Counted from the stretch's first letter, positions 33,129 to 59,913 are shown. The stretch is 64,000 bases of DNA from an uncultured Candidatus Saccharibacteria bacterium (GCA_964350735.1 CAYGKO010000003.1:52452-116451); one strand, 5' to 3'. Notes: generated from the letters alone by a model not told the origin. Program-made: numbers and translations.

Positions 33129-33785
33129 TTACGTCGCCTGTGATAGTTCTGACAACTGATCAAAGACCCGTTGAGGATCTGTCGATCCCATAATAGCTGA
33201 ACCTACTACGAATCGTTCAGCTCCTGCTGAAAGTAAGCGAGGTAGTGTACGTTCATTAACACTACCATCTACACTAATAACTAAATCTGAGTGTAAAGAC
33301 TTTAAATCAACAATCCGCTGCAGTACACGTTCGTCAAAGGGTTGCCCCTGGGATCCAATTTGTGCGATACCCATCACCTGTACAAAATCTACACGATCTA
33401 AATATGGTTCTACTACTTTTAAGGTTGTATCGTTTTCAATTGCCAACCCTACAGCCACCCTACTTTGTTCACATAAATTAAAGGCTTGTTCAAGCTCTGC
33501 TGGGCTCGCAGCTTCAATATGAATAATCATTCTTTCGATATCGACTGACAACCACTCTATAATAGACGGGATAATGTCCTGAGCCATCAGATCAATCCCA
33601 ATCTTAAAATCTGGTATTGGGTTTACCAGATCGAAATGACGCACGTCTCCAGCATAGGGCCAAGAAGTCTGAGGAGCAAATACCCCATCCACAACATCAA
33701 TTTGCACCTGAGAAGCAAATGGCACTCGAGCCAGTTGGTTACGCAAATCTTTTAGCGACTTCGGGATAATAGCTGGAATGATCAT
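33129..33785 (-). CDS. rpe: Ribulose-phosphate 3-epimerase-like TIM-barrel protein
   Basis: MIIPAI ... IDVVDGVFAP, resembling the RPE HVDVMDGHFVP motif. Sits in the pentose-phosphate operon. Confidence 0.7.
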   Translation of the reverse strand: MIIPAIIPKSLKDLRNQLARVPFASQVQIDVVDGVFAPQTSWPYAGDVRHFDLVNPIPDFKIGIDLMAQDIIPSIIEWLSVDIERMIIHIEAASPAELEQAFNLCEQSRVAVGLAIENDTTLKVVEPYLDRVDFVQVMGIAQIGSQGQPFDERVLQRIVDLKSLHSDLVISVDGSVNERTLPRLLSAGAERFVVGSAIMGSTDPQRVFDQLSELSQAT

Positions 33786-33795
33786 AATCTAGGAC

Positions 33796-34260
33796 TTAAT
33801 ACATCTGATCGGTAATCTCTTTTATCTGATCAATCCGGCGCTGATATTTCTCATCAGCTAACGGCTTCGTCTTAAACCATAATTCAATAATTTTTTTTGC
33901 TTCTACAGCTGATACAAATCGCGCTCCTATAGAAAGCACATTAGCATCATTGTGTTCTCGAGATAATTTTACTATTTCGACTGCACCACCATAATAAACA
34001 ATCGCTCGCACTCGCGTAAAGCGGTTGGCTAACATAGCCTCTCCTTGTCCTGAACCACCAAAGATAACCGCTCTGTTGTTTTCAGGGTCTGCAGCTACTG
34101 CAGCGGCAGCTTCTGTAATGAAGACTGGGAAATCATCAACCGGGTCATATTCATGCGCACCACAGTCAATTACTTCAAAACCCAATTCAGACTCAAGAAA
34201 TACCTTAATCTCATTCTTTAATTCAAACCCAGCGTGATCTGTAGCGAGAAATACTTTCAT
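33796..34260 (-). CDS. rpiB: Ribose-5-phosphate isomerase B
   Basis: RpiB/LacAB fold sequence (LATDHAGFELK ... GGSGQGEAM). Confidence 0.85.
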   Translation of the reverse strand: MKVFLATDHAGFELKNEIKVFLESELGFEVIDCGAHEYDPVDDFPVFITEAAAAVAADPENNRAVIFGGSGQGEAMLANRFTRVRAIVYYGGAVEIVKLSREHNDANVLSIGARFVSAVEAKKIIELWFKTKPLADEKYQRRIDQIKEITDQMY

Positions 34261-34261
34261 G

Positions 34262-35299
34262 CTAAGCAGTGTCCTTGGCGTTGAAATACTTGGCTACTGC
34301 ACTAACATGCTCGACCAGAGTATGCGTGTAACTGGTCTCGTTGTCATACCAGGCCAGCACCTTTACTAAGTTTCCGCCAACCACACGAGTCATAGAAAGA
34401 TCTGCTATAGCTGCAAAACGCGCTCCAATAATATCCGAAGATACTACCGGTTCATCCGTAACAGCAAATAGATTTTTCCAAGCATCTGATTCAGCAGCTG
34501 CTTTAAAAGCAGCGTTGACCTCTTCAACTGTAGTATCTTTCGAAGCTATAAATGTCACATCAACAATCGACCCGACTGGCACCGGCACTCGAATAGCAAT
34601 GCCATCAAATTTATTTTCTAAGTCAGTATGTGCAAGAGTAGTTGCTTTAGCTGCACCCGTTGAGGTTGGAATGATATTTTGCGCTGCTGCTCTTCCTTTA
34701 CGGAAGTCTTTACTCGGTCCATCAATTAACGCTTGAGTTGCTGTATATGCGTGGATTGTGTTAAGAATTGCTTTATCTATTCCAATAGCGTCTTTCAAGA
34801 TTGCGACCAGCGGACTTGTTGCGTTGGTGGTACATGATGCGTTTGAACTAATCGAACACGATGACAAGGCAGCATCGTTTACACCCATCAGTACAGTCGC
34901 CCCGGTCACACCAGCTGCTGCTGGATCATCTTTTACCGGACCTGAAATTACTACACGCTTTGCCCCAGCTTCAAGATGAAGCTTTGAACCTTCATAGCTG
35001 GTAAAAAATCCCGTTGCTTCTACCACGATATCAACATTCATTGTGCCCCACGGCAAAGCTTTTGGATCACGTTCACTCAAAAAGCTTATCTGCTTCCCAT
35101 CGACAATTAAGTTCTCATCTTGGACCGACACATCAAATTCTCCTCGTCCATATGCAGTGTCATATTTCAATAGATAGGCTAGGTTTTCTAAGCTACCTAA
35201 GTCATTAATGGCTACGATCTCAAAATTTGGATTCGCGTGAGCCATCTTAAAAAACGTCCGTCCAATTCTGCCAAAACCATTAATTGCTACTCGTGTCAT
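34262..35299 (-). CDS. gap: Glyceraldehyde-3-phosphate dehydrogenase
   Basis: NGFGRIGR NAD-binding motif and SCTTN active-site Cys. Confidence 0.95.
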   Translation of the reverse strand: MTRVAINGFGRIGRTFFKMAHANPNFEIVAINDLGSLENLAYLLKYDTAYGRGEFDVSVQDENLIVDGKQISFLSERDPKALPWGTMNVDIVVEATGFFTSYEGSKLHLEAGAKRVVISGPVKDDPAAAGVTGATVLMGVNDAALSSCSISSNASCTTNATSPLVAILKDAIGIDKAILNTIHAYTATQALIDGPSKDFRKGRAAAQNIIPTSTGAAKATTLAHTDLENKFDGIAIRVPVPVGSIVDVTFIASKDTTVEEVNAAFKAAAESDAWKNLFAVTDEPVVSSDIIGARFAAIADLSMTRVVGGNLVKVLAWYDNETSYTHTLVEHVSAVAKYFNAKDTA

Positions 35300-35373: not shown

Positions 35374-36933
35374 CTAAACCGACATATCCTCACGTTGCTG
35401 GAACAATCTACGCGCCATAATGCCAAGTAACACAAAAAGTGGCAGCAACCAAATAAACCACACGGAGGCAAATACTGCTTCAGTATCCTTAAACACCGTA
35501 ATCTGTCTTACCTCTATCACTCCAGTCAATTTTTTAATACCTTTAGTCTTAAAATCAAACACTTCAAAACTAAAATCATATTCACCAGGTACCAACAAGG
35601 CTCCGATCTCAGCTTCATAGGCCGTCTTGTCAGCATTTACTCGCAATAAAAACGCGAACACTTTTCCGTTTTGTGGATGCACCAGTCGTACTATCACTGT
35701 CTTGAGATGTTCAGGCAAGCGCTCATACGGCACCGATATCAATGTAGTTTGATTATTAGTAATCACCACCCTTTCATCTACAAACACCGCAACATTTCCC
35801 CGTCGGTCACTGAATGATATGTCTGCAATCGATACTACTGTAGTGTTTTCCCCCATCGGTAAACTAATATCTACAGTATCATCAAGTGCCGCATTAGACT
35901 GAGCTTCATCTATTTCGCCTGTGGAGCGTGAAAAATATATTTCAGTCACTGCTCCAGAGGAACTGTTTCCAGCTTCATCATAAGCAAAAATTGTATAAAA
36001 TCTACGCGCACTGTCTGCGGTACGACCGTCAAAAGTTTCTGCGGCATCACCTTCGTACACCAGATAACCTCCTTGTAAATCTGTCGGATAGAACTGATCG
36101 CTACTAAGCACTCTGACTTTCTGAAAATCATCTTCATTAGGATTAGTCCAACTTAATTGCACTCCAGTTTCTGTACCTATGGCTGAAAAGTTCATCGGAT
36201 TTGCCGGAGCCTGGACATCAGGGCGAGACAAAGTTCTAAAACTAACTGTTTCAATTGCAATCTTACCCGAGGAATCTCTCACCTGAATCTGGAGTTCATA
36301 AACAGAATCTGGTGCTAAACCATTAATTAGTACCTGGTGATCTTTCTTAAAGGCAGCACCGGTACTGAATCCTAATTCAAAGTCGACTGTTCTACCCCAA
36401 GCTATCTCAGCTTGAGTCAAACGATTGGTGGAGAACGAAACTGTTGCACTATCTATTTGGGTGTCAATATTTATAGTATCAATACGTACTGCAGCCTGAT
36501 TCACTATACGCCCTCCAAAACTAATCTCGGGAGTTGTGGTCGGTGTGGTAGTAGCAACAACCACTGGTAGTGTCACTGCCGTCGCAGTGGCTGACGTCGT
36601 AGAAAAATTAAAACTTGTGTCAAAAGCCCGGATCGTATAGTCATAGCTAGTACTGGCGGTTAGGCCAGTGTCTGAAAAGTTAACCAGCGAAGTAGTGGCA
36701 ATTTGTATCGTATCTCTAAATACTTGGTAGCCTCCTAATGCAAAGTTATCCGAAGACGCATCCCAGCTGACATCAATTTGGGCACTGGTCACTGGTGTTG
36801 CAAGTACGTTCAATGGTGTGGTTGGCGGTACAATATCGCCCCCAACCAAAGATTGGATCGTAAATTCATCAGTAGCCGCAAAAGCCACCTGCGTAGTAAT
36901 GAAACAAAGGATTACTAGAAGAATCTGTTTCAT
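35374..36933 (-). CDS. Secreted fibronectin-III-domain surface protein with C-terminal TM anchor (519 aa)
   Basis: Signal peptide. FN3-like segment (PTTPLNVLATPVTSAQIDVSWDAS ... YDYTIRAFD). C-terminal TM helix plus RR. Confidence 0.65.
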   Translation of the reverse strand: MKQILLVILCFITTQVAFAATDEFTIQSLVGGDIVPPTTPLNVLATPVTSAQIDVSWDASSDNFALGGYQVFRDTIQIATTSLVNFSDTGLTASTSYDYTIRAFDTSFNFSTTSATATAVTLPVVVATTTPTTTPEISFGGRIVNQAAVRIDTINIDTQIDSATVSFSTNRLTQAEIAWGRTVDFELGFSTGAAFKKDHQVLINGLAPDSVYELQIQVRDSSGKIAIETVSFRTLSRPDVQAPANPMNFSAIGTETGVQLSWTNPNEDDFQKVRVLSSDQFYPTDLQGGYLVYEGDAAETFDGRTADSARRFYTIFAYDEAGNSSSGAVTEIYFSRSTGEIDEAQSNAALDDTVDISLPMGENTTVVSIADISFSDRRGNVAVFVDERVVITNNQTTLISVPYERLPEHLKTVIVRLVHPQNGKVFAFLLRVNADKTAYEAEIGALLVPGEYDFSFEVFDFKTKGIKKLTGVIEVRQITVFKDTEAVFASVWFIWLLPLFVLLGIMARRLFQQREDMSV

Positions 36934-37691
36934 TGTGGCAGTGCCGTTAACGTCGCTGTAGCAGTGTACGTGCCTGGAACAGGGTTTGCGGTTGACCCAA
37001 CTCCAACCCGAAATTTAATTGTAGTAGTAGAACCTAAAGGATGATTAGGATCAGAACGATCAGCAATTACTCTACCGTCACTTTCATTATAGAAACCACT
37101 CCAACAGGCATCACTATCATCTAATGAACCAGTATTGCAAACCAAACCTGCACTATTCTTAAACGTATCAGCAATATCAATTCCTTCTGGTGAGTACCCA
37201 AAAAACGCTTGTCCGGAAGTGAAATCAAAATCATATGACGGTGTGGTACTAGTGGCATAGTCCGCGATAAAGTCACCTCCCGAAACCATAGCTGGTGAGG
37301 TGCTGGCTTTAATAAATAACTCATATCCAGCTGGATCATCGGTAACTACGGTTACTGTTGTAGACCCGTTAGAGACACCTCCAATCACACCGTCGATCAC
37401 CGTACTTAAAACTACATCAGGTGATGCCGAGAGAGAAATAAAAGAATTTTGCATTTGCTGATATCCGGCACGCAACTCATAGGAAGTACTGGTTCCGACT
37501 CCAGTTGCAATCTCTCCTGCCGTTGACTCTTGTCTGAAGTTAGTAGAACTAGAAAATCCGCCTCCAGTATTAATTGAATCGCTTTGAATTTGGTAGTTTG
37601 TACTTGATCGCACTTGTGCGTGCAGAAAAGGAGCTCCCAGCAGCAGTAGCGCACAGATTCCAAGTGTGATGTGTTTTTTAAAGAAGAGCAT
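36930..37691 (-). CDS. Secreted WxL-like small surface protein (253 aa) ending ...GTYTATATLTALPQ
   Basis: Signal peptide and a Ser/Thr/Gly-rich body. The C-terminal motif is shared with the paralog at 38769-39470 and resembles the terminal WxL motif, with W replaced by A. Confidence 0.55.
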   Translation of the reverse strand: MLFFKKHITLGICALLLLGAPFLHAQVRSSTNYQIQSDSINTGGGFSSSTNFRQESTAGEIATGVGTSTSYELRAGYQQMQNSFISLSASPDVVLSTVIDGVIGGVSNGSTTVTVVTDDPAGYELFIKASTSPAMVSGGDFIADYATSTTPSYDFDFTSGQAFFGYSPEGIDIADTFKNSAGLVCNTGSLDDSDACWSGFYNESDGRVIADRSDPNHPLGSTTTIKFRVGVGSTANPVPGTYTATATLTALPQ

Positions 37692-37705
37692 GTATTGAAT
37701 CAGTC

Positions 37706-38749
37706 TTATTTCCGCTTGAACTCAAACGTTCTGAAGAAGCCCCGAATCAAAAAATACAGCAGGAATATACTTAGCAAACCGCCAGCAACAAACGTCCAAG
37801 GGATAACCCAAAAACTCACTACAGCTGTGTCAATAATATTTTCATACCCTCGATTCAGTTGCACCTCTGCCTGGTACCGCCCGAACAACACCTCTCGATC
37901 CCAACTAATTTCACGAAGACGTACTGACCCTGGAAGTACAAACCAGGGCTGTAATTCAACAAAACCAACTTCTTCTCCTAGCAAATTAGTAATACGGATT
38001 TCACCATACGGGTTTAGGTGTACCGAACCTTGATTTTCGTACACTACATCAAAATTAACGGGACCTTGATTAAAAAATGTCTGTTTATTTCTAGTAGAAA
38101 AATCTTGCAATATACCACCCCGTTCGACTGCACCAGGAATTGACACAAAAAACAGAGATCCGATCCGACTCACAATTGCAGAGGACGGTAGTGTCCTCGG
38201 ATCAGAGCCATTATTAGCTTCTTTAGTAACCGTTTTAACCAACACACTTCCATACAACCCACCTGGCTCGGCATCAGGAGGCACGCTAATTGTGACAGGA
38301 ATGATAGCTCGCTTCGCGTGATCTAAGGGAAATTCTAGATCTGGGATTTTAATATAGTCTTTAATAGTGTACGGCCCAGTCTGACTACCAAGCAGCTCCA
38401 CCGATCGCTTTGGGTCATTTGAACTACGAATGTCTTCAATCTCAATGGAAAACGTTTGCTCTTTTCCAATTCTATTAGCTACACTGATCTCAACTGTTTT
38501 TGATTCACCTGGAGCGATTTCAAGCTCAACCTTACCTGGGCTCATTACGAAATCACCCACCACATCGTCGAACGGTAATGATTCGAGTCGATAGGCTGGC
38601 TGTTGCTCAGTTACTACTTCAGATTCAGGCGCTTCAATTGAACTACTTGCAGATGTAAAATCTTCTTGAGCCAGAGATGTCTCAGAGAAAATGAATAAAA
38701 TTACACTAACACTAAAAAATAGAGAACTGGGGTGGCGTATAACAGACAT
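37706..38749 (-). CDS. DUF916/DUF3324-like cell-surface protein with C-terminal TM anchor (347 aa)
   Basis: Signal peptide. PG(E/Q).K..V.V.N pattern typical of DUF916. Single C-terminal TM plus basic tail. Size and topology match CscA-type proteins. Confidence 0.5.
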   Translation of the reverse strand: MSVIRHPSSLFFSVSVILFIFSETSLAQEDFTSASSSIEAPESEVVTEQQPAYRLESLPFDDVVGDFVMSPGKVELEIAPGESKTVEISVANRIGKEQTFSIEIEDIRSSNDPKRSVELLGSQTGPYTIKDYIKIPDLEFPLDHAKRAIIPVTISVPPDAEPGGLYGSVLVKTVTKEANNGSDPRTLPSSAIVSRIGSLFFVSIPGAVERGGILQDFSTRNKQTFFNQGPVNFDVVYENQGSVHLNPYGEIRITNLLGEEVGFVELQPWFVLPGSVRLREISWDREVLFGRYQAEVQLNRGYENIIDTAVVSFWVIPWTFVAGGLLSIFLLYFLIRGFFRTFEFKRK

Positions 38750-38768
38750 ATTGTCTATTCAGTGTAGA

Positions 38769-39470
38769 TTAGTTATCTAATGCGGTCAACGTAGCTGTGG
38801 CGACATATGTTCCATTTGGTACGGCTGGATTTGGATTTGATGGAATTGTAATTCTAAACTGCACTGTAGAAGTTGATCCCGACCCAGGTGTTGGTGCTGA
38901 GGTATTAATTAGTTCAGTGACAGTAGTTGACGATGTGGTTGATGCCCCACGCCAGCAGTTGTTCACCGTGAATGAACCATTGTTTGAGGTCCCGCAGGCT
39001 GCACCTGTGTTAGTAAATACATCTGAAACATCCGCCGTAGCAGAAGCATTAACAGAGAAACCAAATTGTGCTCCGACTGATGAAGTATCGAACCCAGACG
39101 GATACGCGGCAGTACCAGTTGAATATACGTAGTTCGGAATAAGCCCTCCGCCACTATTTCGTCCCATCGCTGTAGTACTACTAAAATTAATCGTCATGTT
39201 GTAACCAGTAGCATTATTGGTTCGGACTCTTGTAGTAGTAGTACCGTACGAAGTGCCCCCAGTGAGACCGTCTAGAGTCCCAACCATGGCCACATCATTA
39301 GCGAGTGTTTGAAAAGAAATCGCTCCACTGATCACCTGAGTCACTGTGAAATCATCAGTGATAGCCCGACTAACCGTTGGTTCCAGCAACAGAAATGAGA
39401 ACGCAAGAAACAGACCAACGGCAAGCGTTTTGAAGGTTGCTTCTACAAAAGAGCGAGTTAGAGATTTCAT
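38769..39470 (-). CDS. Secreted WxL-like small surface protein (233 aa) ending ...GTYVATATLTALDN
   Basis: Paralog of 36930-37691, sharing the C-terminal P.P.GTY.ATATLTAL motif. Confidence 0.55.
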   Translation of the reverse strand: MKSLTRSFVEATFKTLAVGLFLAFSFLLLEPTVSRAITDDFTVTQVISGAISFQTLANDVAMVGTLDGLTGGTSYGTTTTRVRTNNATGYNMTINFSSTTAMGRNSGGGLIPNYVYSTGTAAYPSGFDTSSVGAQFGFSVNASATADVSDVFTNTGAACGTSNNGSFTVNNCWRGASTTSSTTVTELINTSAPTPGSGSTSTVQFRITIPSNPNPAVPNGTYVATATLTALDN

Positions 39471-39710
39471 ATAAAGAAAATTATTTTAATGTATTTTAAG
39501 TATAAGTCTTTACCCTCAAATACCAAGAGGCTTTATACACAGCAAGAAAAATTGCGTTTACCTTCATAACAAGAAAACTAATTAAATATTGTTCCGACCG
39601 CTTCGAATTCCAATTTATGATCATGTAGAGTTTCCGACTCGTTATAAATATTACATTGTTTTAATAAGCTATGTAATCCGACATAGCTATATTTTACTTA
39701 GTTTCACCGA

Positions 39711-42700
39711 CTAAATTGAACCTCCTCCTCCGCCCCCACCGCCAGTCGCTTGGTGATACACCCGTACCTGAATCTCATCGATCCGGATTTCGTTGCTTGA
39801 TGGTGCACCAGTAACCCGGATAGCAAAGTTGGTGTTGTTAAGCTCAGTCGGTGTCCAGGCGCGACCCCAGAGATCAGCCGGTGCACCGAGCGTAACCACC
39901 GTATCGCTCGTAGTGAGAGTCGGACTAGTCTTAGCAGCAGTCCAGCTGGTACCGCCATCGTACGAGAGTTCCACATCGATCGTCCCGGCGTCCGTAGTAC
40001 CAGACACCTCGAGCTTCACCGCAATTCCCACAATCTCATTACTGCCCGGGATACTGTGGCTGTAGTTGGTGTAGTTGTGAGTGTCGGCGGCACTGGTGGT
40101 GGCGTAGGTGCCGTCAGTCTGATCGTAGGCATTAGCAGCGCTGTTCCAGCTGCCACTATTGGCACTTGGGCGGTTGAAGCCAACTTCTGCACCAATGGTA
40201 CTACCACCAGTATTGGTATCAACTGCACTCCCACCTCCACTACCCCCTCCAACTTCTTCACTCCGACCGGCTGGAGCGTCGCCGCCAATCGATCCTTGAG
40301 AACTACCACCTCCACCACCACTCCCCTGATTACCTCTAATATGTTGCACTGAATTTACTGAACCATTTACATTGATTACTTCTTCAAATACTACCCCAAT
40401 ACCTTGCACACCACTCGTGGCTAGACTCAACACTAGCATTTCAGATCGTGAGACTGCATTAATATCAAACGTCACTAAATAATTTTGGTTTGTAGTGACT
40501 AGGAAATCATCGGCAAACACAATTGTACCCGACTCGCCACTGAAGGTGAACTCACCACTAGCATCGAGTACCTGGTCGGTTACATCATACTCAGCATCAT
40601 TATCTGTATCCTGGTACAAAACAATATTTGGGATACTGCTGGTTGAGACACTATTGCTGATACCTGACACATTGAGCGTTAGCGCTGTAACGGTTGCGCT
40701 CTCACCAGTTGGAGTAAGCTGAAATGCAAAGGCTGGTTGACTCGTTGCATTCTTAAAACTAAACGCACTACTTACCTGACCTACAGAATGATTAGCAATT
40801 GTAATCACACCTGGCTCTGCCAGCGCATAGAAGTCAGTAGTGGTTGATTGGTTGAGATATTCAGCGGCGATCCAGGCTGGAGCGCGTATAGAATTAGAAA
40901 TTCGTACCTCATCTAATGAGCCGTCTAGATTTCCACCCGCGCTGCGTTCTGCCCCCAATCGTACTGGTCGATCAGTCTCGAAATCTGGTTTTGAATTGAC
41001 AGCATCATTAGAATCAAATAAAGACCCATCAATATACTCATCAACATCATTGGCGCTTGTATCAAATTGCAATGTTACGTGCTTCCAGCCTGCGCCAGCA
41101 ATAGTAGACCAGCCGTTAGTAATAAAATTACCAGTTCCAGAAGTGTGAAAAATGGCCGTGTTATTTGTGGTGCCTCGACGTTGAAACGACCAGTCATTCC
41201 CAGCTCCATTTCCCTTGGAATAAAGCGCAGCAAAACTATTTTGTGAAGCATCCATATCAACCCACAGACTAACTGCGTAATCAGAAGCAGAGAAATCAAA
41301 TTCGCTAGTGCTCGGTATTTCAATGTAATCAGAAGCACCATCGAGATCTTGGGCCAAGCCGAGTCGTCCAGCTACATCACTCCCACTCGTCATCGATGTA
41401 CCAGTTCCGTGGTTTCCAAAACTTGTAGAATCTCTGTATCCACCGGCATCTGTATTTCCATCTTCGCCTAAGTGATACACCGCTACATACCCGTTACTCC
41501 ACACATTCTCCGCTCCATACGTAGCACTCGTAATGTAATCAATCGAACTAGAGCCGTTGTAGTAAATCCTAAAATGAGTATCCATAGTAGAAGAAATAAG
41601 ATTGGCCTTGAAGTGCAGCTCGCCTGTCTGAAGGGTCGTCGAGGCCGATACTAATTCGCGCGGTAACTCAACTGGTGAGCCGCTATTTGTGGTCACCCGA
41701 ATGTCACCAGCGTCACTCGATACTCCAGCCCAGAAATCTGCACTCAAGTCTGACAGATCAATATATACCGGGAAATCAGCTAGATCTTCATCAATATTGG
41801 TGTAGTCGATGGTGACAACATCGTATTCAGTCCAGTCAGTATCATTCCAAGGAACCGGCGCTGCTCCCGCCTCAAGGGTCCAGTTAGTGTTGTTTCCTGA
41901 GTCAACTGACTGATAGGCAGTGACCCCTCCGGCAGTGATTGTTGCGTCACTATCTCGCACATCAACAAATGACACCGATACTTGTATACCCGTATCAAGA
42001 TCCCAAGCAGTGCCTGGATCTGAAGAGCGGAGATACACTGGGCGACCATCTTCACCGGTCCAGTCCACACTATCAAAGCTATAAGTTTCTCCAGCTAGAA
42101 ACTGCACCGATGAGGAGGCCTCAATCGTAAAGAGGCCATCAGTTTCAGCTGGTGCCCCGAAAATGAATGATTGGGTTGTGCTACCTGAGGCTGAGTCATT
42201 ACGTACCGTCAGTGCATTAAAGGCATCGGTACCTGACAGCGAACCAGTAGCTGTCTGCGTACCAGATCCAGCGAAGATTACTTCTCCACCACTCCCATAT
42301 ACGCCATTATTCGTGTAATCACCGAGCACAGTCAGTTCGCCTGTCCCACTGAGTGAGCCAGTTGCATCAATCACCATGTCAGCAGTGGTAGCATTGGTAA
42401 AGGTGTAACTACCGGCAATCACCACTGTATTACCCGCAATAGCATCTGTCAGAGCGCCGGTAATTTGCTCTCCTGAGCCAGTGAGCGTGGTTGTACCACT
42501 CCCGGCAATCACTGCCCCACTGCTATCAAACGATCCAGCGATTGAAAGCTCATTTGGAAGAGCTGCTGTCCCTCTAGATTCGATGACAAAGTTGGTTGTA
42601 CTAGCGTTATCAGCAAACAATATTGTACCGACCGCCGAGATGTCATTGAATGCTGAAGATCCTGTAAGAACTCCTGAGGCAGACAGATCGTCTAAATCAT

Positions 42701-45700
42701 ATTCATTAACATCATCTCCGCTGAATCCAACAACAAACAACTTTGTACCGTTAGCATTAAATGCCATACCCGTCGGAGATGTCTCTTCTGCAGCAATACT
42801 GTAACTAGTAACGAAACTAGCGGTTGAGATTGAGAACGCCGTACTCAGGACATACTCATTGATATCATTACCAATATTCCCTAATACAAACATCTTCTCT
42901 CCTGTCTTATTAAAGAGTAGCGCTAAAGGGGTTGTATCTTGAGAAGAAACACTGAACTCAGCCACGTGACTGGCTGTAGACACATCAAATACAGTACTAA
43001 GAGAATACTCATTCACCTCATCGGGCGTTGATCCGAGAACATACATCTTTGTACCGTCAGTGTTAAACGTTACATCAGTCGGAGTGGAGTTATCTGCCAC
43101 CACACTAGTAGCATGAGAGAATGAGGCTGATGAAATATCAAAAGCGGTACCTAGTGCATACTCGTTAATATCATTACCTGCGTCGCCAGGAACATACATC
43201 TTTGTACCGTCAGTGTTAAATGCTACATTGAGTGGACTCGTGTCTTGGAGCGCCACACTCGTCGCATGAGTGAACACTGCAGTAGAAACATCGAAGCCAC
43301 TACTAAGCGCATACTCGTTAATATCATTACCACTGTCTCCAGCTACAAACATCTTGGTACCGTCGGTGTTGAATTCAACTCCTCTCGGCGTGAGGTCTTC
43401 AGTAGCAACCCTAAACGACCCGTCAAAATAAGCAGTAGAGATATCAAAAGCACTATCAAGGAAATAGCGATAGACATTGTCGCCAGTCGAACCAATGACG
43501 AACATTTGTGTGCCGTCATTGTTAAACCGCATATCGTTTGGAGTTGCCTCTTCAAGTGCGACACTAAAGCCATCTACAAACGTACGAGTTGATGCATCAA
43601 ACGCTCCACTGAGCGTATACTCACTAATATCATTACCGGTATCACCTACAATAAACATCTTGCTGCCGTCGGTATTAAACTCAATTCCAGTTGGAGTAAA
43701 ATCTTGCGCATTCACAAGCGTCGCATCAACAAACGCCGCTGAAGACACGTCCCACGGTGAACCCAAGGTATATTCGTTCACGTCATCACCACTACTCCCG
43801 ACTACAAACATCTTGGTGCCGTCAGTATTAAAACTCAAACCTTCCGGTGTAAGCTCTTGAAGTGACACACTCGTAGCGTGAGTATAGGCAGCGCTCGACA
43901 CATCAAATGCCGACGTCAGTTCATACTGAAACACCGAATCATTGGTGGTTCCTAGAACAAACATCCTCGTACCCGTTGCGCTGAACGTTACTGCCGTTGG
44001 AGAAGTCTCTTGAGACGCAATCCTAAAGCTATCAACAAAACGGGCGGTCGAAAGGTCGTATGGCTCTATTAATGCATACTCATTAACATCATCTCCAGAA
44101 GACCCAATCACAAATAATTTTGTACCGTCAGTATTGAAAGCCAACCCTTCTGGGCTTGCTTCTTCGGAACTAACAGAAAACACATCATTATAACTGAGAG
44201 TGGATACTTCATAGGCCTCACCGGCAAAATACACCGTTCCAGAATTGTTTTCGAATACCCCGTTATTGGTGAGCGACCCGGCAATTGTTAGGCTAGTAGC
44301 TGGAGCAGTGGTCGTAGCCCCAGCTTCAATTGTAATATTCGTAGTTGACGCTGCTTGTCCAAAGGAGACTGAACTACTAGCAATTATGCGCACATCTGCC
44401 AGACTGGACGCTCCCGTAAAATCCCCAGAGATACTCGCTGGAGTCGTGCTACTAAAACGCACCAATCCTTCATTGGCATTAAAGGAACCGTTGTTTGTTA
44501 GATCGCCAGTGACCGTTAACACAACCGGTGCCGTCGTACTCCCAGCGGCTGCAATGGTTATATTTTCTACTTCTGCTTCACTACTGAAAGTATAGGCCCC
44601 AACAACAAAGGTATTACCCAGTTGGTTATCTCCAGTCAAACTGCCAGAAACCGTCTTATCTGTCCCCGTCAAGTACAAACTCTGTCCAGCGGTAAAAGAT
44701 CCATTATTGGTAAAACCTCCACTCGTTTCAAAGTTGCTGGTAGATGCAATTGAGACCGACACTCCAGCGTCGATTGTAAAGTCGGTCGTTGACGCATTAT
44801 CAGCAAATAGCACATTTCCAAATGACGCCGTTGTTGTGGCTAAAGCTGAAGTGCCAGACAAGGTACCACTAAGCGTACTGGTCGAAATAACGGCCTCAAA
44901 CGTGAACGAAGACGCTAGATCAAAGCCACTGAAGGTATCGCTAAAACTACCGCTCACAAACATAGAGAAGCCGTCCGGACTCATGTCTATTCCTGATGGC
45001 AAGGTTTCAATATCAGACAAATCATATTGGCGACCATCGTATGATGCGGTTGATACATCAAACCCCGCCGACAGTGTGTATTCAAATACTGAATCAGTTT
45101 GGTCACCTAAAATAAACATCTTGGTTCCGGCGGTGTTAAAAACAATTCCCGACGGTTGCGTGTCTTCACTCGATACATCAAAACTATCTACAAACGAGGC
45201 GGTCGACACATCCCATGCCGGACTGAGTGTGTATTCATTTACATCCATTCCAGCCGTCCCGACTACAAACATTTTGTCGCCTGTAGCGCTAAGTGCCATA
45301 GCTGCCGGTGACGTCTCTTGTGAACCAATCGGCTCAGTATCTACCTGAGTAGCGCTCGAAATATCCCACGGGATACTAAGTGAAAATTCATTAATGTCAT
45401 TCCCTGTATCTCCCAGTATGTACATTCGACTACCGGTAGCATTGAACTGCACATCTTTCGGCGCAGTATCGAAGCTTTTAATAGAAAACCCTTTCTCATA
45501 CTCAGCAGTTGTAAGATCGTACGGTGTACTGACATCAAATTGCCCCACCATGCCAGAAAGTCGATACACACTGTACAATTTTGTTCCATCGTCATTAAAG
45601 GTGACCGCCTCCGGTACTGAATCAGTTTTTACCAACGAGTCTGTCGACACATTAGCAGCTCCCCCAAAAGAGAAAACTGGATCAAGTGCATATTCATAAA

Positions 45701-48700
45701 TTCCCCCCGTGGAAGGATCGGTCACATATGCCTTACTGCCACTGGCATTAAAGGTAATGTCGTAGAGATCTGTCACTTCAGTAAATGAGAGCGTGATGCT
45801 TGTGCCAATTGAACCAGGATCATAGGCTGAGCTGAGATCGTACACTGTAAGCGTGTTGCCGGTGTAATCACCGACAAACATTTTAGTACCATCGTCGTTA
45901 AATTTAATAGTTAACGTGTCTACAAAGATTGAGTGCGAAGCGTCAAAAGAGGCCCCTGATAGAGCGTACTTTGGGGAGAGGCCATATTCATAGATAGCAC
46001 CAGATCCGTTTGCTTGGTACAGTATCGATCCATCATCATTGAATTCAAGTCCAAATCCGCCGCCTGCAAAAGAGTCGGTAGCACTAGCGGTCGATACATC
46101 CCAGTCCGTACTGAGCTCGTACTCATATACATCCCCAGTTCCAGAGTCACTGATAAACATTTTGCTTCCAGTCGCATTAAATACGATAGCAACTGGTGAT
46201 ATTCCCTCAGTACTTACATCGAAACTGTCGGTGTAGCTTAAAGTGGAGAGGTCATAGTCAACACTAAGCGCATATTCATCTACATCATCCTCATTATCAT
46301 CAACTACATACGCCTTACTTCCATCATTATTGAAGCGAATCGCAAATGGCGTCGCACTATCACTTGGATAGGTGGTATCCTGAAATAATACTCCCCCAAA
46401 ACTATACGGCGCATCAAGAGAATACTCAAAATATCCTGCGAAAGCAGCGGTTAGGAACAACCGATCTCCATCACCATCAAAATCCACTCCTGTAATCGTA
46501 TTAGCACCCAAATCTCCTGAGGTATTGAGTGTACCTCCAAATACTGCCGTGGAAACATCAAAGGCAGTGCCCAGATCATACTGATAGACTTCCCCATTTG
46601 AATCCCCGCCGTCAGTAACAAACATCTCATCACCGGTCGGACTGAATGTTAGTGCATACGGACTGTCGGTTTCAGTACTCACACTGAACGCATCAACATA
46701 ACTGAGGGAGGTAATGTCCCACGCTGATAACGTAAATTCACTGACATCATCGGCGCTTTCGTCACCAACAAACAACTTAGTGCCCGCACTATTAAATGAG
46801 AAACTAATCGCGGTAGTTACTTGTGAGAAAATATGAGTATCAGTGGCACTCGCCGTTGAAACATCAAAGGCCGTACTGAGATCATAGGCATAGAGCGTAT
46901 TATTTCCACCGCCCAAAACAAACATCTGGGTACCTGAAGTATTAAACTTCACTCCAAAGGCAAAGCCGTCTTCTCCGCTCACATCATACCGGGAAGCCAG
47001 ACCAGCGGTGGACAAATCGTACGCAGTAGACAAATTATACATTTCGATCACATCATTAGTGACGTCAGTGAATGCTACCTTGGTCCCTGAGTCCACAATG
47101 GACATTCCCCAGAAGCTAGAGTTAGCCGCTGAAGTAGTCACTGCATTTTTGAAAGACACCGACTGTCCAGACTGAATGTCCAGCGTCGACTCTGTACTGT
47201 CATAGGTCCCGTCGTTTGTCAGACTCCCCGCCAATGTAAGCGTAGCTGGAGCTTCAAAGGTTGCTCCGCTTGGAATTGTAATTGACCCCGGCAGTGTTGC
47301 ACCAGAAATTGTAGTAATCGCAGTACCTCCATTAAGGGTACTACCTGGCCACACGTACAGCTCTTTTCCACCCTGAACCGTAAGTGTCTCAGCTGCCGCT
47401 GACGCTAGATACATGATGTCGCCATCATCTGATGCATCGTATACGGCGAAGTCTGCAATAGTAGTCGAAGAAATACCGGCTTCATGACGCGAAATAACGT
47501 GATCTTGATATAGATCAAGCGTTGTGATATCGGTCGAAGAAGAATTAGCAACAGTTACCAGCGATCCTTGAATACTACTATCACCATCCACCCAAACCAC
47601 CACGCCTGATCCGTCATCTATGGTATGACCTTGCGTAATCGCCACCTCCCACAGACCGGTAGTCTGAGCTGATGAACCGGTATAGACCTGGACTGGATTA
47701 CCAGCCGCTACTTTAATTACCGAACTAGTTGCAACAACCGTACTTCTATCAGCTTGGTACAGCGTACCTGAAAAAGTAATCGGAGCAGCTTGTGCAGTGT
47801 TGTAGAAGTCGGTGGTAGTAGCTTGATTGAGATGTTCAGCTGAAATCCAAGCAGCTGAACGTTCAACGGTACTAACCCGAAATTCGTCTATTGAACCTTC
47901 GTGATAGTTAGCACCCGCGTCTCCTCCTAAATAAAAACCAGTCAGGTCAACATTAGGATTGTCAGTCGAGATACTACTTGTTGCACTCACACCATCAAGA
48001 TAAATGCCTTTGCCTGTCCCTGAGGTCACGTGCACCATTGTCCATTTATCATCATAGGCTGTGTAACTAGTAGATATACGACCTGGTGTAGTACAGCAGG
48101 TACCAAAATCCCAATAAACAATATCCGCCCAGGGCGCTGATATCACAAGACGTTCATTCCCACCACCAACTGCCCAACCTGCCGCAATGTGAAAAGTCTC
48201 AGCCGCAGCTGCAGCTGCAACGTTATTCCAAAATTGTACAGTGACAGTATTATTGCTGTTGCTCCAGACATTATCTGTATCGGTTAATAGCTCATCATTA
48301 CCGTCGAACTGAATCGCCTGACCGCCTGCTAGGCGTCCAGTGACTGAGTCCCCTGACACAAACGATCCAATAGTAGCTAGGTCGTAATCATTACTCGTTG
48401 AGTCATACACCGTGGCTCCAGAAGGATCTTCTTGCAAATGGTAGACACTATAGTAGCTGTTCGTCCAGACATTCTCCGCTCCGTAGGTATCGTCGGTTGC
48501 GTACGCTGCCGTAGTTGAGCTGTTGTAGTAGATTCGAAACACCGTATCAGTCGTCGAAGAAATACTATTTGCCTTGAAGTGCAACTCTCCAGTTTCTAAG
48601 GTGGTAGAAGCAGACACCACTTCACGCGCCAACTCGACTGGTGAACCATCGTTCGTAGTCACGCGAATATCTCCCCCTCCATCACTGACCGTACTCCAGA

Positions 48701-48953
48701 AGGTTGACGAAAGATCAGCCAGGTTGATATAGACCGGGAAGTCTGCCAGGTCGTCGTCGATATTGGCAGCATCGATAGTGACAGTGTCGTACAAGGTCCA
48801 GCTGGTACCATTCCAAGTTGATGTAGCGGCTTCTGCAGACTGAGGCGTGAAGAATGTAAGCAGAGCGAGCGCTCCCAACAACACCAACAAACCACTCAGT
48901 TTAGTCTGCATTGTACTTATATATGTACGTGGTTTTGATTGATGTGTGTTCAT
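39711..48953 (-). CDS. Giant secreted protein (3080 aa): two DUF2341/LamG-like modules, dozens of ~45-aa beta-propeller-like repeats, Gly-rich C-terminus
   Basis: Signal peptide. DUF2341-like modules at the N-terminus and again mid-protein (ADFPVYI(N/D)L ... GDIRVTT ... GELHFKAN). Repeats of the form SP.G..FN.DGTKMFV.G..GDDVNEY.L..A(F/Y)D(V/L)STA. Confidence 0.8.
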   Translation of the reverse strand: MNTHQSKPRTYISTMQTKLSGLLVLLGALALLTFFTPQSAEAATSTWNGTSWTLYDTVTIDAANIDDDLADFPVYINLADLSSTFWSTVSDGGGDIRVTTNDGSPVELAREVVSASTTLETGELHFKANSISSTTDTVFRIYYNSSTTAAYATDDTYGAENVWTNSYYSVYHLQEDPSGATVYDSTSNDYDLATIGSFVSGDSVTGRLAGGQAIQFDGNDELLTDTDNVWSNSNNTVTVQFWNNVAAAAAAETFHIAAGWAVGGGNERLVISAPWADIVYWDFGTCCTTPGRISTSYTAYDDKWTMVHVTSGTGKGIYLDGVSATSSISTDNPNVDLTGFYLGGDAGANYHEGSIDEFRVSTVERSAAWISAEHLNQATTTDFYNTAQAAPITFSGTLYQADRSTVVATSSVIKVAAGNPVQVYTGSSAQTTGLWEVAITQGHTIDDGSGVVVWVDGDSSIQGSLVTVANSSSTDITTLDLYQDHVISRHEAGISSTTIADFAVYDASDDGDIMYLASAAAETLTVQGGKELYVWPGSTLNGGTAITTISGATLPGSITIPSGATFEAPATLTLAGSLTNDGTYDSTESTLDIQSGQSVSFKNAVTTSAANSSFWGMSIVDSGTKVAFTDVTNDVIEMYNLSTAYDLSTAGLASRYDVSGEDGFAFGVKFNTSGTQMFVLGGGNNTLYAYDLSTAFDVSTASATDTHIFSQVTTAISFSFNSAGTKLFVGDESADDVSEFTLSAWDITSLSYVDAFSVSTETDSPYALTFSPTGDEMFVTDGGDSNGEVYQYDLGTAFDVSTAVFGGTLNTSGDLGANTITGVDFDGDGDRLFLTAAFAGYFEYSLDAPYSFGGVLFQDTTYPSDSATPFAIRFNNDGSKAYVVDDNEDDVDEYALSVDYDLSTLSYTDSFDVSTEGISPVAIVFNATGSKMFISDSGTGDVYEYELSTDWDVSTASATDSFAGGGFGLEFNDDGSILYQANGSGAIYEYGLSPKYALSGASFDASHSIFVDTLTIKFNDDGTKMFVGDYTGNTLTVYDLSSAYDPGSIGTSITLSFTEVTDLYDITFNASGSKAYVTDPSTGGIYEYALDPVFSFGGAANVSTDSLVKTDSVPEAVTFNDDGTKLYSVYRLSGMVGQFDVSTPYDLTTAEYEKGFSIKSFDTAPKDVQFNATGSRMYILGDTGNDINEFSLSIPWDISSATQVDTEPIGSQETSPAAMALSATGDKMFVVGTAGMDVNEYTLSPAWDVSTASFVDSFDVSSEDTQPSGIVFNTAGTKMFILGDQTDSVFEYTLSAGFDVSTASYDGRQYDLSDIETLPSGIDMSPDGFSMFVSGSFSDTFSGFDLASSFTFEAVISTSTLSGTLSGTSALATTTASFGNVLFADNASTTDFTIDAGVSVSIASTSNFETSGGFTNNGSFTAGQSLYLTGTDKTVSGSLTGDNQLGNTFVVGAYTFSSEAEVENITIAAAGSTTAPVVLTVTGDLTNNGSFNANEGLVRFSSTTPASISGDFTGASSLADVRIIASSSVSFGQAASTTNITIEAGATTTAPATSLTIAGSLTNNGVFENNSGTVYFAGEAYEVSTLSYNDVFSVSSEEASPEGLAFNTDGTKLFVIGSSGDDVNEYALIEPYDLSTARFVDSFRIASQETSPTAVTFSATGTRMFVLGTTNDSVFQYELTSAFDVSSAAYTHATSVSLQELTPEGLSFNTDGTKMFVVGSSGDDVNEYTLGSPWDVSSAAFVDATLVNAQDFTPTGIEFNTDGSKMFIVGDTGNDISEYTLSGAFDASTRTFVDGFSVALEEATPNDMRFNNDGTQMFVIGSTGDNVYRYFLDSAFDISTAYFDGSFRVATEDLTPRGVEFNTDGTKMFVAGDSGNDINEYALSSGFDVSTAVFTHATSVALQDTSPLNVAFNTDGTKMYVPGDAGNDINEYALGTAFDISSASFSHATSVVADNSTPTDVTFNTDGTKMYVLGSTPDEVNEYSLSTVFDVSTASHVAEFSVSSQDTTPLALLFNKTGEKMFVLGNIGNDINEYVLSTAFSISTASFVTSYSIAAEETSPTGMAFNANGTKLFVVGFSGDDVNEYDLDDLSASGVLTGSSAFNDISAVGTILFADNASTTNFVIESRGTAALPNELSIAGSFDSSGAVIAGSGTTTLTGSGEQITGALTDAIAGNTVVIAGSYTFTNATTADMVIDATGSLSGTGELTVLGDYTNNGVYGSGGEVIFAGSGTQTATGSLSGTDAFNALTVRNDSASGSTTQSFIFGAPAETDGLFTIEASSSVQFLAGETYSFDSVDWTGEDGRPVYLRSSDPGTAWDLDTGIQVSVSFVDVRDSDATITAGGVTAYQSVDSGNNTNWTLEAGAAPVPWNDTDWTEYDVVTIDYTNIDEDLADFPVYIDLSDLSADFWAGVSSDAGDIRVTTNSGSPVELPRELVSASTTLQTGELHFKANLISSTMDTHFRIYYNGSSSIDYITSATYGAENVWSNGYVAVYHLGEDGNTDAGGYRDSTSFGNHGTGTSMTSGSDVAGRLGLAQDLDGASDYIEIPSTSEFDFSASDYAVSLWVDMDASQNSFAALYSKGNGAGNDWSFQRRGTTNNTAIFHTSGTGNFITNGWSTIAGAGWKHVTLQFDTSANDVDEYIDGSLFDSNDAVNSKPDFETDRPVRLGAERSAGGNLDGSLDEVRISNSIRAPAWIAAEYLNQSTTTDFYALAEPGVITIANHSVGQVSSAFSFKNATSQPAFAFQLTPTGESATVTALTLNVSGISNSVSTSSIPNIVLYQDTDNDAEYDVTDQVLDASGEFTFSGESGTIVFADDFLVTTNQNYLVTFDINAVSRSEMLVLSLATSGVQGIGVVFEEVINVNGSVNSVQHIRGNQGSGGGGGSSQGSIGGDAPAGRSEEVGGGSGGGSAVDTNTGGSTIGAEVGFNRPSANSGSWNSAANAYDQTDGTYATTSAADTHNYTNYSHSIPGSNEIVGIAVKLEVSGTTDAGTIDVELSYDGGTSWTAAKTSPTLTTSDTVVTLGAPADLWGRAWTPTELNNTNFAIRVTGAPSSNEIRIDEIQVRVYHQATGGGGGGGGSI

Positions 48954-48961
48954 ATTGATTT

Positions 48962-59167
<10,206 letters not shown>

Positions 59168-59169
59168 AA

Positions 59170-59913
59170 TTAATTTTCAATTTGCTTATCGGAGTCAGTA
59201 CTCATGTGTTCACCAGTAGAGACCGGGACCATCAGAAACAAATACTCGTCGTCTTGCTGATTTTCGCCATTGTCACGAAACACTGGCGTAATTACACCAG
59301 TGTCAGTGTTTTTCATTTCAATTACCACCTCATCGGAAAAAGCCTCCCTGACTTTTTCTAACTCAGTCTCAGTATCAACAATCACAACACCTACATCTTG
59401 ATTCGGTTCAATCGCTTGCACTATTTCAACTTCTTCTGAAAAGAAACCGAATAGATTAAAAGCCTCACTGAGTGTTTCCGTCACGGAAACCGCACCAAAA
59501 GAAAAGGCTTGGAGGTCTAAAGCTTCAGATTTTGCTGTCCAACTGAGAGAAGCTGCTAACGCGATGCACGCCAACACTGCTGCAGTTTCGGCCAAAGCCA
59601 CCGGGAACAAACTGGGAGCGGTTGCTACTTTTTCAAAAACAATTTGCTTTTGCCTTCCCACAACTCTTTCTACAATTCTAGATTGACGCAACTGCTCCTG
59701 TCGAAGTCTACGCTCTGCTTCAGCCTCAAGCGAGAAGAGCTTGAGTGAATCAGCTCCCACAAACCACTGGCGACCACGCTGCTCTGCGAGAATTTTCTTT
59801 TCCCGAGCAAGTCTTCCTACGTAATCAGCTGTGTACCCAACGAGCTTAGCAGCCTCTTTTGTCGGGAGCATTCGATCTGTATTTTCCGCTTGTGTTTGAA
59901 GAGAGTCCAACAT
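59170..59913 (-). CDS. Membrane-anchored protein with N-terminal excisionase-type HTH (HTH_17-like), one TM, extracytoplasmic C-terminus (247 aa)
   Basis: LPTKEAAKLVGYTADYVGRLAREKKILAEQRGRQWFV, then TM segment AVLACIALAASL. 3 nt upstream of the giant gene start. Confidence 0.6.
   Translation of the reverse strand: MLDSLQTQAENTDRMLPTKEAAKLVGYTADYVGRLAREKKILAEQRGRQWFVGADSLKLFSLEAEAERRLRQEQLRQSRIVERVVGRQKQIVFEKVATAPSLFPVALAETAAVLACIALAASLSWTAKSEALDLQAFSFGAVSVTETLSEAFNLFGFFSEEVEIVQAIEPNQDVGVVIVDTETELEKVREAFSDEVVIEMKNTDTGVITPVFRDNGENQQDDEYLFLMVPVSTGEHMSTDSDKQIEN

Follow-up and report, generated by a model that had tools for sequence, protein, structure and literature searches.

A four-gene locus of a Paceibacteria-type bacterium that may encode an usher-less, donor-strand-exchange fibre related to the Pam pilus

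In a stretch of 64,000 nucleotides from an uncultured bacterium deposited as Candidatus Saccharibacteria (GCA_964350735.1, CAYGKO010000003.1:52452-116451; this whole stretch is the window, and positions are counted from its first letter), four genes form a tight cluster on the minus strand. In order of transcription they encode proteins of 233, 347, 253 and 519 amino acids (p233, p347, p253 and p519), and the genes for GAPDH and RpiB follow. The distance is 19 bp between p233 and p347 and 14 bp between p347 and p253, and p253 and p519 overlap by 4 bp. An earlier interpretation (the sequence-only reading) had likened this cluster to the WxL/Csc cell-surface complexes of Lactobacillales. The four open reading frames that it described are indeed present, two small secreted proteins flanking the 347-residue protein and a surface protein with FN3 domains (Pfam fn3) adjoining downstream; the cluster is not, as it also had it, directly upstream of two giant proteins, as in the direction of transcription these giants (3401 and 3080 amino acids) are upstream of the cluster. 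The evidence collected here tilts slightly towards another view, namely that the four genes are an operon for a pilus or fibre that is assembled without an usher by donor-strand exchange, a reduced relative of the Pam pilus of the Candidate Phyla Radiation (CPR). The genes, and the parts of their products on which this view depends, are the following.

38769 to 39470, minus strand: p233, a 233-residue secreted pilin-like protein (open reading frame; signal peptide, beta-sandwich; paralogue of p253; first gene of the module in about 80 related loci).
37706 to 38749, minus strand: p347, a 347-residue membrane-anchored, chaperone-like protein with two immunoglobulin (Ig)-like domains (Pfam PF06030, EfmWxLIP1, AlphaFold, Foldseek).
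38138 to 38278, minus strand: long beta-hairpin closing domain 1 of p347, residues 158-204, DAEPGGLYGSVLV...loop...SAIVSRIGSLFFVSI (AlphaFold model, family conservation).
37727 to 37798, minus strand: C-terminal transmembrane helix of p347, residues 318-341 (AlphaFold model).
36930 to 37691, minus strand: p253, a 253-residue secreted protein related to PamT (open reading frame; NCBIfam NF058579).
37452 to 37616, minus strand: N-terminal extension of p253, residues 26-80, with three repeats of the type S.NY.[IL] (family alignment, AlphaFold).
36933 to 37451, minus strand: beta-sandwich domain of p253 with predicted pilin fold, residues 81-253 (invariant GY.L, a Cys pair, C-terminal ...YTATATLTALPQ).
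35374 to 36933, minus strand: p519, a 519-residue FN3-rich protein, always the fourth gene of the module (Pfam fn3, three stretches).

According to profile searches, p347 is a homologue of the DUF916/WxLIP proteins. PF06030 (WxLIP_PGBD, formerly DUF916) narrowly misses its gathering score with p347 itself (E=2.6e-5, 24.7 bits against 27.3) and matches 78 of the 79 members of the p347 family (best E=1.7e-9), and the family profile finds EfmWxLIP1 of E. faecium in the PDB (E=3.8e-7). Homologues number more than 1174, and NCBI names a few of them, from Paceibacterota/Pacebacteria, 'DUF916 domain-containing protein'. The likeness to DUF916/DUF3324 proteins that had been proposed holds at the level of sequence for the first of these domains only, as DUF3324 (PF11797) was not detected by Pfam in any of the 79 family members at E<=1. 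The proposed signal peptide, C-terminal membrane helix and basic tail are all borne out by the translated reading frame and the model (residues 318-341, followed by FEFKRK).

The AlphaFold model of p347 has a predicted local distance difference test (pLDDT) score of 90 and consists of a signal helix, two beta-sandwich domains and the C-terminal membrane helix; in the sequence, the hydrophobic signal is followed by a PGESKTVEISVANRIG segment. When compared by Foldseek, the model finds WxLIP structures 9i1y and 9i25 at the top (E ~1e-11 to 1e-12, best 4e-12), the latter being described as WxLIP 'bound to long WxL'. The second Ig-like domain spans residues 212-315, and the alignment to 9i1y has 273 columns, enough for both domains. 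Next come the chaperones of chaperone-usher systems, CfaA, CsuC, Caf1M, FimC, PapD, DraB and SafB; RbmA is also among the matches, with a far poorer superposition. The hairpin at the end of domain 1 is built from strands 163-176 and 192-204 with a loop of lower confidence between them, and it ranks with the best-conserved parts of the family. From its place in the model it is a candidate donor strand, and by position would be equivalent to hairpin F1-G1 in chaperone-usher chaperones. A hairpin strand that WxLIP inserts is reported to complete the WxL sandwich (PMC10599100), and the p347 hairpin may be the counterpart of that element. The cytoplasmic tail of p347, FFRxFEFKRK (37706-37750; FEFKRK in the window), is near-invariant across the CPR family, which points to a partner inside the cell or a signal for positioning; for Firmicute WxLIP, the transmembrane region reportedly has no clear homology in sequence (PMC10599100).

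The paralogy of p233 and p253 that the sequence-only reading had noticed is evident from BLASTP (E=5e-19, 38% identity across 162 amino acids) and from profile-profile comparison by hhalign (E=3e-38). Their C-termini, ...PVPGTYTATATLTALPQ and ...PAVPNGTYVATATLTALDN, both finish with TATLTAL plus two residues, as had been stated; the preceding P.P.GTY is slightly off in its spacing in both proteins. Within the window this ending is confined to these two proteins, and a search of the window's open reading frames with the family profile also finds them alone. Elsewhere the motif, written as Y.A[TS].T[LIVM]TA, is kept in 71/76 members of the p253 family and 47/77 members of the p233 family, and is thus not due to chance. 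In p233 the beta-sandwich domain terminates in ...YVATATLTALDN and a short conserved strand, AITDDFTVTQVISGA, is located near the N-terminus. As a separate observation, the hydrophobic signal region of p233 ends in a Glu-Pro pair (residues 30-31, LLLEPTVSRA, 39378-39383) that is kept in 90% or more of the p233 family members. An ordinary Sec signal peptide would not usually have such a pair, which might indicate a dedicated step of processing.

Homologues of p253 number more than 1111 at 90% clustering, with 1625 representatives at 50% clustering (E<=1e-3); no function is given in the name of any named member, and Pfam domains are not recorded for any of them. Of the family's 34 invariant columns, 15 fall in the N-terminal extension of p253, yet this part has a pLDDT of only about 45-58 in the monomer model. 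A strand whose binding site is on another subunit should show this combination, and the extension is a candidate donor or linker strand region. The remaining domain is mostly modelled with high confidence (means of 76-97 over blocks of ten residues), and its best Foldseek matches are of the chaperone-usher-pilin type, with polymerising pilins dominating and the archaic type ranking above TasA; WxL chains were not among them. The predicted fold of the subunit is thus the Ig-like fold of pilins that accept a donor strand, as in chaperone-usher systems, with the provision that TM-scores for the p253 and p347 models are modest (0.3-0.55). Searching PDB sequences with p253 and with its family profile gave chance-level matches only, PamA/PamB (25PZ, 25QA) being unmatched or absent from the copy searched.

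Pam pili have been solved in the CPR parasite Candidatus Mycosynbacter amalyticus (Saccharimonadia), and PamT is their single-domain tip pilin, described without a donor strand (preprint 10.64898/2026.03.03.709456). The NCBIfam model of PamT, NF058579, matches p253 with E=9e-12 and 44.9 bits, and it matches all 76 members of the p253 family (best E=1.3e-14); none reaches the equivalog cut-off of 240 bits, and p233 is not matched. The match covers positions 11-145 of the model's 241 and lies mostly in the N-terminal extension of p253. Judged by this profile, p253 is a distant relative of PamT and not an equivalog.

The same small proteins had been regarded as WxL-type, with the tryptophan of the terminal motif replaced by alanine, and this is not supported. 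PF13731 (WxL) has no Pfam match at E<=10 to p233 or p253, nor at E<=1 to the 76 members of the p253 family, and the two or more PF13731 proteins, each with two Trp-x-Leu motifs, that characterise WxL clusters are not detected here. Using hmmsearch, the p233 and p253 family profiles found nothing significant in ten WxL or DUF916-neighbour proteins from Firmicute plasmids (Enterococcus, Bacillus, Pediococcus, Lactococcus, Lactiplantibacillus and Listeria), and hhalign against narrow and diverse WxL alignments gave P=0.1-0.75, with negative controls scoring equally. On these null results I rejected p233 and p253 as WxL domains. Tryptophan is absent from the last 14 residues of every family member examined, and when the C-terminal strands are aligned by eye, the position of the WxL tryptophan is taken by leucine and not by alanine. 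The best local matches of hhalign, which are non-significant, coincide with the two WxL motifs, GY.L/GW.L and the C-terminal VP...Y.T.T strand; a remote homology would fit these matches and is not demonstrated by them.

A static complex of the WxL/Csc kind nevertheless stays the main rival, because the nearest solved relative of p347 is WxLIP, by sequence as well as by structure. In such a complex p347 would permanently hold p233 and p253 at the surface by strand complementation and no fibre would grow; the result would perhaps be a non-polymeric platform that docks or organises the giant adhesins. This arrangement agrees with the gene content, a single WxLIP-like protein with two small paralogues that are secreted, as in the commonest WxL cluster (PMC10599100), with the single-domain nature of all subunits in the window, and with the position of the local hhalign matches exactly on the WxL motifs. 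It also draws on Listeria plasmid pLIS14, where proteins next to a DUF916 gene likewise lack tryptophan in their termini (TVTVAVVQGP, TITATIVQGP). It accounts less well for the significant homology of the p253 family to a pilus protein, for fold matches that are dominated by polymerising pilins and contain no WxL chain among the best, for the missing statistical similarity to WxL (Pfam, hmmsearch, hhalign) and for the undetected DUF3324 in the p347 family, and it leaves both the conserved, apparently disordered extension of p253 and the N-terminal strand motif of p519 unexplained. I consider it unlikely, though worth keeping in mind. Of the earlier description as an analogous, non-covalent WxL-type surface complex, the analogous surface module can stay, but given the relatedness to PamT and the chaperone-usher-pilin-like fold, calling it a non-covalent WxL-type complex probably does not describe it best.

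The pLIS14 region deserves a remark of its own. In this plasmid (L091, 4068-7461), 'hypothetical' proteins of 244 and 530 amino acids flank the DUF916 gene, and their ends are WxL-like except for the tryptophan; the layout of a small protein, a DUF916 protein and a protein of about 530 residues resembles that of the CPR module. Both here and in B. anthracis pXO1 (L087, 4217-5978), the DUF916 genes are found a few kb from conjugation genes of the CpaF/VirB11 type.

The fourth protein, p519, begins with a signal peptide; three FN3-type stretches and another region towards the C-terminus follow, and then a C-terminal membrane helix (residues 489-507, nucleotides 35413-35469) with a basic tail. 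Directly behind the signal peptide lies a strand motif, ATDEFTIQSLVGGD (nucleotides 36835-36876), that is close to the AITDDFTVTQVISGA of p233. Expressed as [DENSTQ][DENQ]F[TIVLS][VIL][TQSRK] within the first 90 residues, the motif occurs in 29/77 members of the p233 family (38%) and 29/69 of the p519 family (42%), compared to 13/2320 (0.6%) of the other open reading frames of the same loci; as this pattern was defined after viewing the data, the enrichment is indicative only. Apart from the motif, the two families are unrelated. Co-variation of the two N-terminal strands within genomes could be followed in three gap-free pairs only. By analogy with PamR, p519 is a candidate anchor or terminator of the fibre.

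One genome per species was scanned for the p347-type chaperone, and the hits come from the close Paceibacteria-type family only. At least 193 species-level genomes encode it, and the best 80 of these 193 are all CPR assemblies (Paceibacteria, Kaiser-, Nomura- and Zambryskiibacteria among others). Many 'Saccharibacteria' labels among the relatives look like generic names given by automated pipelines, and the lineage of the present host is Paceibacteria-type CPR. The order p233-p347-p253-p519 is near-invariant in 83 related CPR loci, in most of which GAPDH comes next after the module and homologues of the giant proteins often stand ahead of it. Variants exist in L002/L003, where p233 is present in two copies, and in L092, where a 670-residue protein with an extra N-terminal region and a p253-type module occupies exactly the position of p253. 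As an observation on the neighbourhood, the genes for GAPDH, RpiB, ribulose-phosphate epimerase and a split transketolase are found behind the module almost everywhere (33129-35299 in the window).

This near-invariant order, with its short gaps of 14-19 bp and its 4-bp overlap, bears on the idea that these are merely co-located, independent surface proteins, the small ones being lectin- or adhesin-like and p347 having another role such as wall binding, with no donation of strands. Such independence would suit the facts that Ig-like and beta-sandwich folds are common, that TM-scores are modest and that the p347 model also matches proteins with two Ig-like domains that are no chaperones, for example RbmA; the contact between p347 and the subunits is also a deduced one. 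Next to the gene order, the top fold matches of p347 and p253, which are mainly from chaperone/subunit systems, and the strand insertion between WxLIP and WxL that is documented for the homologous family (PMC10599100; PDB 9i25) make it improbable.

Larger relatives of p253 carry the extension and the domain at their C-terminus, preceded by LamG, DUF2341, Gly-rich or FN3 parts. The extension is modular in relatives: insertions separate it from the domain, or extra domains stand ahead of it. Individual cases are P0354 (383 residues), P0289/P0310 (about 600), P0405 (1205) and P0368 (2187), which have LamG, DUF2341 or FN3 ahead of or inside the p253 module; in its N-terminal part, P0354 also has a match to TafC of NCBIfam (E=1e-6), which is a subunit in the Tat-dependent fimbriae of haloarchaea. 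The domain-bearing relatives resemble the two-domain tip adhesins FimH and PapG. Many database proteins of about 520-580 residues join the chaperone to a p253-type protein (P0290, P0296, P0298, P0299, P0301 and others); I did not accept these as true fusions, as the second, now internal signal peptide is retained and they are probably read-through or fused gene calls.

Taken as an assembly system, the module could work as follows. Sec would export all four proteins. Held in the cytoplasmic membrane by its C-terminal helix, p347 would act with its extracellular part like the PapD/FimC or WxLIP chaperones, a strand of its domain-1 hairpin completing the unfinished beta-sandwich of newly exported p233 and p253. 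The N-terminal strand of the next subunit would then displace the strand of the chaperone, so that the subunits become joined non-covalently. As a relative of PamT, p253 would be the distal (tip) subunit, a position that is held by proteins with lectin-like domains in other genomes, and p233 an adaptor or shaft subunit. With a similar N-terminal strand and no acceptor domain, p519 could cap the base and tie the fibre to the membrane by its own C-terminal helix. The giant lectin-like proteins encoded upstream probably serve the same adhesion apparatus. Strand donation by the chaperone, strand exchange, the order of the subunits, the length of the polymer and the link to the giant proteins are what I infer from the homologies, predicted folds and gene order described above.

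Several points weigh against this proposal. Polymerisation is deduced from homology and predicted fold only, and WxLIP, which among solved structures is nearest to p347, is from a system that is not known to form pili. The PamT match is far under the cut-off (44.9 against 240 bits) and lies mainly in the N-terminal half, and beyond it no NCBIfam match ties p233, p347 or p519 to the Pam system. No major pilin with two domains of the PamA/PamB type is present in the window, where the profile finds the single-domain p233 and p253 only. That PamT lacks a donor strand (10.64898/2026.03.03.709456) is at odds with the long conserved extension of p253. Finally, the N-terminal motif common to p233 and p519 was defined post hoc.

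TasA fibres of Bacillus self-assemble by donor-strand complementation and need no chaperone for this. The small proteins could in principle form a matrix fibre in the same manner, p347 and p519 being accessory or anchoring proteins only. This is very improbable: neither Pfam nor NCBIfam finds a TasA/camelysin or SipW family match, a chaperone-like gene invariably stands between the two subunit genes, and archaic chaperone-usher pilins outscore TasA in the fold matches. A donor-strand-exchange fibre built with the help of p347 remains the reading that I prefer.

Upstream of the module, the window contains these further features.

39499 to 39526, minus strand: promoter-like site upstream of p233, in the gap to the giant gene (consensus scan, 9/12 matches).
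39711 to 48953, minus strand: giant secreted protein of 3080 residues (open reading frame, Pfam; associated by synteny).
48962 to 59167, minus strand: giant secreted, fibre-like protein of 3401 residues (open reading frame, Pfam; associated by synteny).

The gap between p233 and the gene for the 3080-residue giant measures 240 bp. As promoter and terminator sites in this region are no more numerous than in shuffled sequence, a separate promoter for p233 is a weak hint. A perfect palindrome with an 8-bp stem (AGCTATGT...ACATAGCT) lies at 39667-39688, 23 bp past the stop codon of the 3080-residue protein; the coding strand shows no T-run after the stem, and the palindrome could serve as a weak terminator, or as a site of processing, between the genes of the giants and the module. 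Pfam recognises two LamG/ConA-like lectin domains and beta-propeller repeats in the 3080-residue protein and LVIVD repeats in the 3401-residue protein. In other genomes, domains of the types seen in the former are fused to the p253 module, and homologues of both are found upstream of or near the module in many related loci. A pilin-type domain in the giants, which would have made them equivalents of 'large WxL' proteins or tip adhesins, was looked for with the p253/p233 family profile and not found in the window.

Homologues of the 3401-residue protein (L038, L059, L073, L080 and L082) all have (T/Q)INYQGKLT shortly after the N-terminal hydrophobic signal, at 59050-59090 in the window, and this resembles the repeat unit S.NY.IQSDS of the p253 extension; it might be a strand for docking onto the pilin domains. 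Further upstream of the giants, two proteins of 247 and 296 residues (59170-59913 and 60314-61204, minus strand) have an N-terminal motif of about 36 residues in common that is helix-turn-helix-like (E=1e-9), and each has a hydrophobic segment beyond it. In L092, a weakly similar protein (E=0.011; 421-1032) is encoded immediately upstream of the p233-type gene. These proteins may regulate the locus while tethered to the membrane.

It is believed that CPR bacteria live attached to host cells, and for most of them the means of attachment is unknown. If the operon builds an adhesive fibre, it would be a widespread candidate for an attachment organelle in Paceibacteria-type CPR, with a subunit family of about 1600 clusters at 50% identity, nearly all members of which are annotated as 'hypothetical'. 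It would fall outside the main host classes of Pam, Saccharimonadia and Microgenomatia (10.64898/2026.03.03.709456). The new link is a DUF916/WxLIP-homologous chaperone next to a PamT-related partner with a fold like that of archaic chaperone-usher pilins, and it connects the WxL field and the Pam/chaperone-usher field, which are unconnected in the literature searched: I found no paper that links WxL with donor-strand or chaperone-usher assembly and none on the 9i25 structure, and the Pam preprint makes no mention of WxL or DUF916 (10.64898/2026.03.03.709456). It predicts that the Pam chaperones are DUF916 proteins, that polymerisation, or at least binding, via strand exchange may be a property of WxL proteins, and that a tethered chaperone suffices for strand-exchange assembly without an usher.

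Compared to the WxL (Csc) clusters of Lactobacillales and Bacillales, the locus has a WxLIP homologue in which a DUF916 domain is combined with a second Ig-like domain and a C-terminal membrane helix, a pair of small secreted paralogues with beta-sandwiches, and larger relatives with binding domains ahead of the C-terminal subunit domain, like 'large WxL' proteins; the reported completion of the WxL partner by a WxLIP strand (PMC10599100) is in line with the role proposed for p347. It differs in its small proteins, which are undetectable as WxL domains and never have the tryptophan, in DUF3324, which is undetected by sequence, in the addition of a membrane-anchored FN3 protein as fourth gene, and also in one subunit's conserved N-terminal extension. 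Its host is a CPR bacterium and not a Firmicute, and WxL systems are described as peptidoglycan-bound complexes, not as pili.

With the chaperone-usher pili of Gram-negative bacteria, archaic as well as classical (Csu, CupE/SCPU, CFA/I, Fim, Pap), the module has in common the predicted fold of p347, matching CfaA, CsuC, Caf1M, FimC and PapD, and a C-terminal subunit strand in which threonine alternates with small or hydrophobic residues. In contrast to these pili there is no outer membrane and no usher (Pfam has no usher match among the four operon proteins and the two giants), the chaperone is tethered by a membrane helix, and the fibre would be anchored by the FN3 membrane protein. The Pfam pilin, SCPU and PapD families show no sequence similarity to the small proteins or to p347. 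It is a tentative possibility that Firmicute WxL/WxLIP clusters, CPR Pam pili and this module belong to one ancient family, in which a membrane-anchored chaperone assembles donor-strand-exchange fibres in single-membrane bacteria, homologous to the archaic (Csu/SCPU-type) chaperone-usher pili. If so, WxL proteins would be pilin-like fibre subunits and not mere peptidoglycan binders, the chaperone-subunit pair would be older than the usher, and the four-gene module would be near its minimal form.

The closest comparison is with the Pam system itself, in which PamA and PamB are two-domain pilins linked by donor-strand exchange, each with an N-terminal sandwich, a linker donor strand plus a truncated Ig domain at the C-terminus, PamC and PamD are FimC/PapD-like chaperones with a C-terminal membrane helix, and PamR, an FnIII protein resembling RbmA, has a strand at its N-terminus and a membrane helix at its C-terminus; an usher is lacking, and the nearby genes include one for a tail-fibre-like protein (10.64898/2026.03.03.709456). 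The present operon is reduced to four genes, with one chaperone instead of two and without two-domain major pilins of the PamA/PamB/PamE type, and p253 scores far below the PamT equivalog cut-off. The neighbours here are GAPDH and pentose-phosphate genes, whereas genes for ATP synthase adjoin the pam operon, and the host is of the Paceibacteria type, whereas pam is distributed mainly in Saccharimonadia and Microgenomatia (10.64898/2026.03.03.709456). The kinship of the chaperone to DUF916/WxLIP is seen here and goes unmentioned for the Pam chaperones (10.64898/2026.03.03.709456). Both systems are found in CPR hosts and combine a PamT-type or PamT-related single-domain secreted protein with a large fibre-like protein encoded nearby and no usher. 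By predicted structure and architecture, p347 resembles PamC and PamD, being like the PapD/FimC chaperones and having a C-terminal membrane helix. Set against the description of PamR, p519 may be its counterpart, with its FnIII domains, N-terminal strand motif and C-terminal membrane helix. That CPR bacteria possess a Pam pilus mechanistically related to chaperone-usher pili is already known; what the present locus adds is the tie between WxLIP/DUF916 and the strand-exchange chaperones.

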